This document shows positions 1,101 to 1,460 of a DNA stretch of 64,000 nt, in pieces; position 1 is the first letter of the stretch; each line of letters begins with the position of its first letter. Under the pieces are notes generated by a model, which was given only the letters and a program-made list of their open reading frames with translations, searched no databases and was not told the DNA's origin. Source of the DNA: Chloroflexi bacterium UBA6622. GTDB taxonomy: Bacteria; Chloroflexota; UBA11872. The stretch is taken from NCBI GenBank assembly GCA_002433065.1, contig DJHK01000005.1:723-64722 (forward strand), written 5' to 3'. The position numbers and the translations under genes were made by a program.

Positions 1101-1460
1101 TTACGTGTTTCGGTGGTCTCCGATGGTTTCATACACGTCGCAATCGAAGCCAGCTATCCGATTCGTCCCTGCCACGAGCACGGGCCGCTGGATGATGTTT
1201 TGATTCTCCTGCATTAATTCGGTAACCGTTGCATCGTCAAGGACATCGAGGTCAATCTTTAGGGACCGGAATGTTGGACTGCGGACGTTGATCGAATCTT
1301 TCGGTTTTCGAGAGCCGATTAACTCGATTGTTTCATCCAACGTCAGAGGTATGCGCCCATAATCTCTAAGTACATACTGGATGCCACGTTGGTCCAAAGC
1401 CGCACGGGCTTTTCGACAAGATGTTCAGGTGCTCTTGAGATAGAGTTTAAGCTCGGCCAT
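1101..1460 (-). CDS. ArsC/Spx-family thioredoxin-fold protein with in-frame TGA (candidate selenocysteine, UxxC motif)
   Basis: The ATG is at 1460-1458. Translation gives [14 protein letters not shown](1427-1425)[18 protein letters not shown]..., continuing into the track ORF 1101..1397. The TGA aligns with the first Cys of the CxxC motif of Spx/ArsC proteins (remembered B. subtilis Spx: [25 protein letters not shown]). The C-terminal 'QRPVLV' aligns with Spx 'RRPIII'. Confidence 0.7.
1392..1417 (-). promoter_or_regulatory. Candidate bacterial SECIS-like hairpin downstream of the in-frame UGA
   Basis: On the mRNA strand: GUCGAAAAGCC[CGUGC]GGCUUUGGAC. Pairs are GUC/GAC, AAA/UUU and GCC/GGC, with one G.G mismatch and one bulged A. 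The 5-nt apical loop contains GU. The stem starts 8 nt after the UGA, and the apical loop starts about 21 nt after the U of UGA. Confidence 0.4.

Follow-up and report, generated by a model that had tools for sequence, protein, structure and literature searches.

A 64,000-nucleotide stretch of contig DJHK01000005.1 from Chloroflexi bacterium UBA6622 (called the window here, at its full length of 64 kb) very probably contains a genuine selenocysteine-encoding gene, which occupies positions 1460-1101 of the minus strand and would specify a 119-residue protein of the ArsC/Spx family, the UGA at codon 12 being decoded as selenocysteine (Sec). This reading is supported by an intact reading frame, by family membership, by the pairing of Sec with cysteine (Cys) in a single alignment column, by conservation of the TGA, by purifying selection and by a conserved hairpin. 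Among these lines of sequence comparison, the evolutionary evidence from orthologues is the decisive one.

Translation of the minus strand gives a single frame at 1460-1101 with 119 sense codons, one of them TGA, followed by TAA (1103-1101); the only internal stop is the TGA at 1427-1425, and the protein ends NIIQRPVLVAGTNRIAGFDCDVYETIGDHRNT. The original prediction had followed this frame from ATG 1460 through the TGA and, without a change of frame, into an open reading frame (ORF) of 98 amino acids (aa) that begins at TTG 1397 in a mechanical ORF list, and translation bears this out. On the minus strand, a spacer of 12 nucleotides (nt), AAGGAAGAAGCA, separates the TAG (1475-1473) that ends the upstream zinc-type alcohol dehydrogenase-like gene from the ATG, and a Shine-Dalgarno-like sequence lies within it (Table 1). 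Closer marine orthologues (L001-L009) have a purine-rich equivalent of this sequence, and inspection upstream of the start in L010 and L011 revealed no clear equivalent. TGA is the stop codon of 22 of the 51 window ORFs and the commonest stop there, so a global reassignment of UGA (genetic codes 4 or 25) was ruled out and the recoding would be local to the selenoprotein gene.

For family searches the TGA position was read as Cys. The protein passed the gathering threshold of Pfam ArsC (PF03960; 51.9 bits, cutoff 24; E-value 9.4e-14), with residues 7-112 aligned to profile positions 1-78 of 79, and also gave a weaker Pfam match to Glutaredoxin. The NCBIfam matches were all below cutoff, namely TIGR01617 Spx/MgsR (61.1 bits, cutoff 75.05), NF002459 Spx (55.3 bits, cutoff 123), PRK10853 YffB-type (42 bits, cutoff 121), TIGR00014 ArsC (27.2 bits, cutoff 106.05) and NF041106 ArsC family (seleno)protein (22.3 bits, cutoff 85). 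These curated cutoffs ruled out membership of Spx, ArsC, YffB or NF041106, and by them the predicted protein does not count as an equivalog of Spx or ArsC. The closest solved structures are Spx proteins (3l78, E-value 2e-13; 1z3e; 6ghb), and homology to them fixes a thioredoxin-like fold. In the structure alignments the KST[U] segment pairs with the CxxC segment of Spx, and the TGA falls on Spx Cys10, the position of the nucleophile Cys12 of ArsC. The TGA had been placed on the first Cys of the redox CxxC by comparison with a B. subtilis Spx sequence; the Spx chains in PDB show that this sequence had been quoted correctly, and the placement is upheld. A 2-residue gap in the window protein falls on Gly52-Thr53 of Spx. 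Because the gap removes the position of Gly52, the residue that contacts the C-terminal domain of the RNA polymerase alpha subunit, an Spx-type contact with RNA polymerase is argued against.

About 40 loci from metagenomes and metagenome-assembled genomes (MAGs), with 31-100% identity to the window protein, were checked; they come from marine Chloroflexota, a Bryobacteraceae MAG and soil clades. A word-indexed search found only eight relatives, called as proteins of 75-98 aa with at most 82% query coverage and all cut at the same place, and the DNA of all eight has the same in-frame TGA, preceded by an ATG and 11 codons (e.g. MAELKFFFKST). Database orthologues are called as shortened proteins of 88-102 aa, and their DNA is intact. 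Every truncated-call lineage whose DNA was read has the in-frame TGA and, 5' of it, both an in-frame start codon (ATG or GTG) and a beta-1 strand that is conserved, which supports the earlier claim of a UxxC selenoprotein shortened by annotation. This arrangement is present in L001-L012 (61-86% identity), L014-L019 (39-43%), L013 and L054-L057. Around the TGA, the proteins with the lower identities to the window protein read FYFRST(TGA)DSC (L014, 43%), FYFRST(TGA)STC (L015, 39%), VYIKPG(TGA)SSC (L017, 39%), MTGLKFYLKPN(TGA)TSCRNAKSW (L013, from the Bryobacteraceae MAG, 35%), FYWKST(TGA)SSC (L056 and L057, 33%) and FYCFPT(TGA)MTC (L054 and L055, 31%). Further marine Chloroflexota orthologues, all with TGA, were found with a degenerate DNA pattern (L035, L039, L040, L043, L045, L047 and L051); in L047 the encoded protein matches that of the window at every residue. 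The codon in the Sec lineages is always TGA.

Differences from the window in the 10 codons 5' of the TGA are mostly synonymous (four synonymous and no nonsynonymous in L007, two and none in L039), and where residues are replaced in the core of the upstream strand, the change is conservative (L to F, Y to F). The frame 3' of the TGA is conserved as well, with mainly synonymous differences, and purifying selection is thereby shown on either side of the codon. Decay of the 11 upstream codons in close orthologues, which had been named as a sign of a nonsense pseudogene or of a true start at TTG 1397, is not seen: in every orthologue purifying selection has kept these codons intact and in frame.

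Counterparts with Cys are plentiful. An exhaustive phmmer search, for which the query was the stretch of 107 residues that follows the TGA, yielded numerous full-length proteins (about 113-120 aa) with Cys exactly before xxC, for example P0010 (RSTCTTCRR), P0048 (KSTCTSCRN) and P0020 (YSSCTSCRK). An alignment with the ArsC/Spx family had been proposed as a check on the column of the TGA; the gene belongs to the ArsC family, and its homologues carry Cys or TGA in exactly that column. Metagenomes were also scanned with a degenerate DNA pattern (TGA, TGC or TGT before xxCRK[AV]R[AV]AL[DE]), which gave 32 hits. Eight of these were discarded, seven as chance matches in unrelated frames (L024, L026, L028, L032, L036, L044 and L048) and L042 as a glutaredoxin-like Cys protein. 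In a soil clade with the sequence FLHKPT[U/C]T[ST]CRKARAALE, the active-site codon is TGA in nine loci and TGC or TGT in six; these loci (among L020-L050, on soil and peat metagenome contigs) have about 80-90% identity to one another. Comparison of these loci indicates recent Sec/Cys switching at the active-site codon, and the alternation of TGA with TGC or TGT is the classical signature of a Sec/Cys pair. The closest full-length Cys homologue (L052, 896-1294; 38% identity, TGT codon) is syntenic with the window gene, as both follow an alcohol dehydrogenase (ADH)-like gene.

Downstream of the TGA, the mRNA can form a candidate bacterial Sec insertion sequence (SECIS) hairpin, GUCGAAAAGCC[CGUGC]GGCUUUGGAC. 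Counted from the U of UGA, the lower stem pairs GUC (1417-1415, nt 11-13) with GAC (1394-1392, nt 34-36), the core stem of 6 base pairs (bp) joins AAAGCC (1412-1407, nt 16-21) to GGCUUU (1401-1396, nt 27-32), and the apical loop CGUGC (1406-1402) consists of C22, G23, U24, G25 and C26. The original prediction had the position of this hairpin right and its spacing slightly wrong, since seven nt, not eight, lie between the TGA and the first G of GUC. Each of the 12 distinct Sec sequences keeps the 6-bp core paired. At pair 18:30, which joins synonymous third positions of Lys and Ala codons (Lys3/Ala3), ten have G-C and two A-U; at pair 21:27, which joins those of two Ala codons (Ala3/Ala3), ten have C-G and two A-U; and pair 20:28 is U·G in one of the 12. 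Pairing in these sequences reaches 91.7% in register and does not exceed 60.7% when the register is slid. A hairpin of 6-7 bp recurs in each of the ten Sec lineages, with its loop within nt 22-36 and a G in the first two loop positions, and it is kept despite differing downstream peptides (KARAAL, RNAKSWL, RRAKSWL, RRARSSL, RKGTALL). Loss of the hairpin from orthologues with TGA, which had been proposed as a contrary sign, was not observed; it is kept in every TGA lineage, with compensatory changes. The SECIS of E. coli fdhF is likewise a hairpin in the coding sequence directly 3' of the UGA, in which G23 and U24 are essential and the upper stem starts 11 nt after the UGA. By the fdhF numbering, the window hairpin is fdhF-like, with its upper stem about 11-12 nt after the UGA and G23/U24 in its loop, although its primary sequence differs and no bulged U is evident in it. 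Taken as a whole, the hairpin is consistent with a SECIS and has some covariation, which makes it supporting but not decisive evidence.

Several results weigh against the Sec reading. The stability of the hairpin relative to dinucleotide shuffles was not significant (z = 0.3 and 0.5), and thermodynamic stability was dropped as an argument for that reason. Among synonymous recodings of the same peptide, 13% give at least six pairs in register, 6% fold no worse than the window hairpin (p ~0.06) and 0.4% no worse than the L007 version (p 0.004). Four of the five Cys forms also fold a hairpin at this place, including L052 (minimum free energy -11.9 kcal/mol). The proposal of a SECIS stands as regards geometry and conservation, but its evidential weight is less than had been thought, because close Cys forms fold similarly. 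Such Cys-form hairpins may be fossil SECIS elements or may result from the K-A-R-A-A-L codons, which are GC-rich and self-complementary; Sec/Cys turnover has been documented, as have SECIS-like remnants in forms with Cys (PMC1794560). Rfam gave no SECIS or other RNA family at 1330-1480 with E-values up to 10, and no SECIS match in the whole window at gathering thresholds, which is no surprise for elements as short and diverse as bacterial SECIS. None of selA, selB, selC and selD was found in the 64-kb window, which says nothing about the remaining genome: ARAGORN found only tRNA-Ala and tRNA-Ile and no tRNA-Sec in the window, and Pfam scans of 50 window ORFs found no SelA, SelB or SelD domain. 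Nor was a tRNA-Sec found in 25 related loci, and the orthologue loci showed no selA, selB or selD either. The Sec-decoding trait has been recorded in Chloroflexi and Acidobacteria (PMC1794560), while SelA and SelB have been recorded in bins of sponge symbionts that belong to several phyla (PMC5649159).

A selenium-independent read-through of the UGA, by near-cognate Trp or Cys insertion or by another local recoding, at low yield and with the hairpin as stimulator, would fit the lack of Sec machinery in the window and the fact that the hairpin is not Sec-specific. It is nevertheless improbable, as the codon falls exactly on the catalytic Cys column and alternates with Cys codons alone, the geometry of the hairpin fits a bacterial SECIS, the family has already been catalogued as a selenoprotein group, and Sec decoding is known in the phyla concerned.

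It is very improbable that the real gene is the 98-aa ORF from TTG 1397, with the TGA in an untranslated leader and an N-terminally shortened ArsC-like product that lacks the redox motif. ORF callers do yield this model everywhere, and the GenBank entry identical to the window ORF (1101-1397, minus strand) is annotated so (HCU73358.1, 'hypothetical protein DGO43_06055 [Chloroflexi bacterium]'). However, the 20 codons before the TTG, among them the ATG and those of the xxCRKARAA motif, are kept at the protein level and vary synonymously; there is no Shine-Dalgarno sequence before the TTG, in contrast to the AAGGAAG before ATG 1460; and the product would be without beta-1 and the active-site loop. 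The called lengths also differ between lineages (88, 90, 93, 98 and 102 aa), so that the alternative start sites are not conserved. A pseudogene or a sequencing or assembly error, in which a TGT or TGC Cys codon was mutated to or misread as TGA, can hardly be credited. One base change turns either Cys codon into TGA and one clade does contain close Cys forms, but dozens of assemblies made independently by different projects share the TGA, in lineages down to 35% identity, the frame has not decayed on either side of it, and TAA or TAG never takes its place.

If the UGA is decoded as Sec, the ribosome would initiate at ATG 1460, and the mRNA hairpin at nt 11-36 would serve as a bacterial SECIS, its CGUGC loop setting G23 and U24 where E. 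coli fdhF has them. This hairpin would recruit SelB·GTP·Sec-tRNA(Sec), with the result that the UGA would be read as Sec and not as a stop. The U12-x-x-C15 centre would then cycle between selenolate/thiol and selenenylsulfide states, with Sec in the place of the nucleophile (Cys12 in ArsC, Cys10 in Spx), and the protein may act as a small oxidoreductase or as a redox relay. We infer the insertion of Sec, the binding of SelB, the redox chemistry and the function of the operon from the sequence comparisons given here.

Selenoproteins of this kind are already known, and the statement in the original prediction that Sec-containing ArsC-like proteins had been reported from marine metagenomes was accurate. 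In the Global Ocean Sampling (GOS) data, the group 'Arsenate reductase 2, cd03032 (ArsC_Spx), UxxC' comprises 42 Sec sequences in 21 samples, with 238 Cys homologues (Zhang & Gladyshev 2008, PMC2398784), and an 'Arsenate reductase-like protein, COG1393, UxxC' is listed in a 2022 review (PMC9312934). Like the window protein, the GOS group, which is heterogeneous and without a formal model, comes from the sea, has an ArsC/Spx-like domain and abundant Cys homologues, and carries a UxxC motif that opens with Sec at the N-terminal beta1-alpha1 turn. A BLASTP comparison with the GOS supplement gave JCVI_READ_1095390070075 as the best match (36% identity over 90 residues, E-value 2e-19) and READ_2161197 as the second (32% identity), both with U aligned to the TGA. 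The published members are thus no more than 36% identical to the window protein, most of them (WYYxRxGU-type reads) about 22%, and the Chloroflexota host and the ADH/RraA-like/CxxCxxCC neighbourhood are not described in the GOS work. ArsC-like selenoproteins are recorded in the Deltaproteobacteria Desulfotalea psychrophila and Desulfuromonas acetoxidans (Zhang et al. 2006, PMC1794560); likened by description, they too have a Sec-containing ArsC-like domain, in another phylum.

The R773-type glutaredoxin-dependent ArsC and the GOS group 'ArsC 1 (UxxS)' belong to the same Pfam family, and the nucleophile Cys12 of ArsC corresponds to the Sec position, but their motif is C/UxxS whereas that of the window protein is UxxC, and the BLAST identity to a GOS ArsC 1 read is 24%. 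Spx, the redox-sensing, RNA-polymerase-binding regulator of Bacillota (1Z3E, 3L78, 6GHB), is the best structure match and shares the RSxxF and RRP(I/V) motifs; it differs in having Cys10 where the window protein would have Sec, in its Bacillota rather than Chloroflexota host, and in retaining the Gly52 position that is deleted here. What is new is the Chloroflexota lineage with its conserved neighbourhood, together with the Acidobacteriota and soil Sec/Cys clade.

Table 1. Features of the putative selenoprotein locus (window positions)
Feature	Positions	Strand	Basis or remark
Full coding sequence, ArsC/Spx-family selenoprotein (predicted; 119 sense codons, one Sec-UGA)	1101..1460	minus	Translation; Pfam; frame kept in orthologues
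Start codon ATG	1458..1460	minus	In-frame ATG/GTG at the equivalent place in all orthologues
Shine-Dalgarno-like AAGGAAG	1466..1472	minus	5 nt 5' of the ATG (1460-1458); GGA centred ~8 nt upstream
TGA, codon 12, predicted Sec; first position of the UxxC redox motif (U-T-S-C)	1425..1427	minus	Conserved TGA; Cys in the homologue column
TGT, Cys15, predicted resolving cysteine of UxxC	1416..1418	minus	Invariant in alignments
Candidate bacterial SECIS hairpin	1392..1417	minus	Folding and conservation
TTG used as start by ORF callers; predicted Leu22, part of the 3' arm of the hairpin	1395..1397	minus	Mechanical ORF list; called starts vary by lineage
Zinc-type ADH-like gene (ADH_zinc_N), upstream, same orientation	1473..2480	minus	Pfam; synteny in L007, L010, L015
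RraA-like/aldolase family gene, downstream, same orientation	348..1052	minus	Pfam; synteny in L001-L011, L015

The selenoprotein gene lies between an ADH_zinc_N gene and an RraA-like gene (Table 1). The RraA-like gene starts 48 nt after the selenoprotein stop, and PhyH and methylpurine glycosylase genes are found further upstream of the ADH_zinc_N gene. The order ADH, Sec-ArsC-like, RraA-like and a convergent PF03692 CxxCxxCC gene (putative Zn/Fe-chelating) persists in orthologues with as little as about 40% identity. Where the contigs of Chloroflexota orthologues extend far enough downstream, the PF03692 gene is seen convergent to the RraA-like gene (L007/L008, L010/L011, L015); it occupies 4833-5666 in L007, 2861-3619 in L010 and 60-344 of the plus strand in the window, where the window edge leaves its C-terminal end alone. 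In L014, PF03692 is present directly after the Sec gene in two copies (602-2081). A promoter and terminator scan of 1-4400 found nothing on the minus strand, a result that is uninformative though compatible with co-transcription. The selenoprotein gene is likely to be co-transcribed with its ADH_zinc_N and RraA-like neighbours. A more speculative suggestion, which we consider rather unlikely, is that the Sec protein, rather than a generic thiol oxidoreductase, is a dedicated selenium-based redox partner of the PhyH/ADH_zinc_N/RraA-like/CxxCxxCC cluster of deep-ocean Chloroflexota, or else a Sec-containing, Spx-like redox switch of transcription; if either were true, the gene would reveal that an abundant, aerobic lineage of the sea decodes Sec, a trait not recognised there before.

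A scan of the window for ORFs with TGA read-through gave two other selenoprotein candidates, at 16091-17101 and 55802-56200 of the minus strand, and both were ruled out by the junk-like translation upstream of the TGA. The first of these regions includes a 315-nt gap without ORFs (16787-17101, minus strand) 5' of a dTDP-sugar-isomerase-like gene, where the TGA read-through is junk-like. The genes for tRNA-Ala(TGC) (4832-4909, minus strand) and tRNA-Ile(GAT) (5116-5192, plus strand) stand back to back and divergent, about 200 nt apart. This pair is usual in rRNA spacers and is found here without an rRNA gene nearby; the divergent arrangement is kept in related contigs (L047 6542-6902, L007 267-341). 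A DUF5069 ORF with a TTG start (4280-4876, minus strand) overlaps the tRNA-Ala gene by about 45 nt, and its real start would be further downstream because the Pfam domain begins at residue 54. Within a glycosyltransferase (GT) cluster (GT1/GT4 and GT87, with Wzy_C, GT9 and WecG further upstream), an ORF of 568 aa (40798-42504, minus strand) has no Pfam match at an E-value of 1e-5 or below and overlaps the end of the GT87 glycosyltransferase gene by 8 nt.

An 85%-identical orthologue sits in a MAG of an 'uncultured Chloroflexota bacterium', and the cluster members come from Tara mesopelagic samples (one orthologue from TARA_078_MES) and other ocean metagenomes. Judged by these relatives, the host is a marine Chloroflexota, probably SAR202-like.

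These results do not overturn current understanding, as ArsC-like UxxC selenoproteins have been catalogued since 2006-2008; their value lies in the correction of an annotation and in a flag for selenium use. The mis-annotation is systematic across databases and deletes the active site. About 60 clustered database orthologues are all cut short, none being longer than 98 aa, and the cluster members named 'arsenate reductase-like glutaredoxin family protein' in IMG are shortened too; the corrected model would be a protein of 119 aa with Sec12. The Sec/Cys switching indicated in the soil clade, with a hairpin that persists in Cys forms, would offer a natural series for studies of the gain and loss of Sec. 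For the marine Chloroflexota lineage, the gene implies a Sec-decoding trait and hence a need for selenium, which would bear on the trace-element ecology of the ocean interior.

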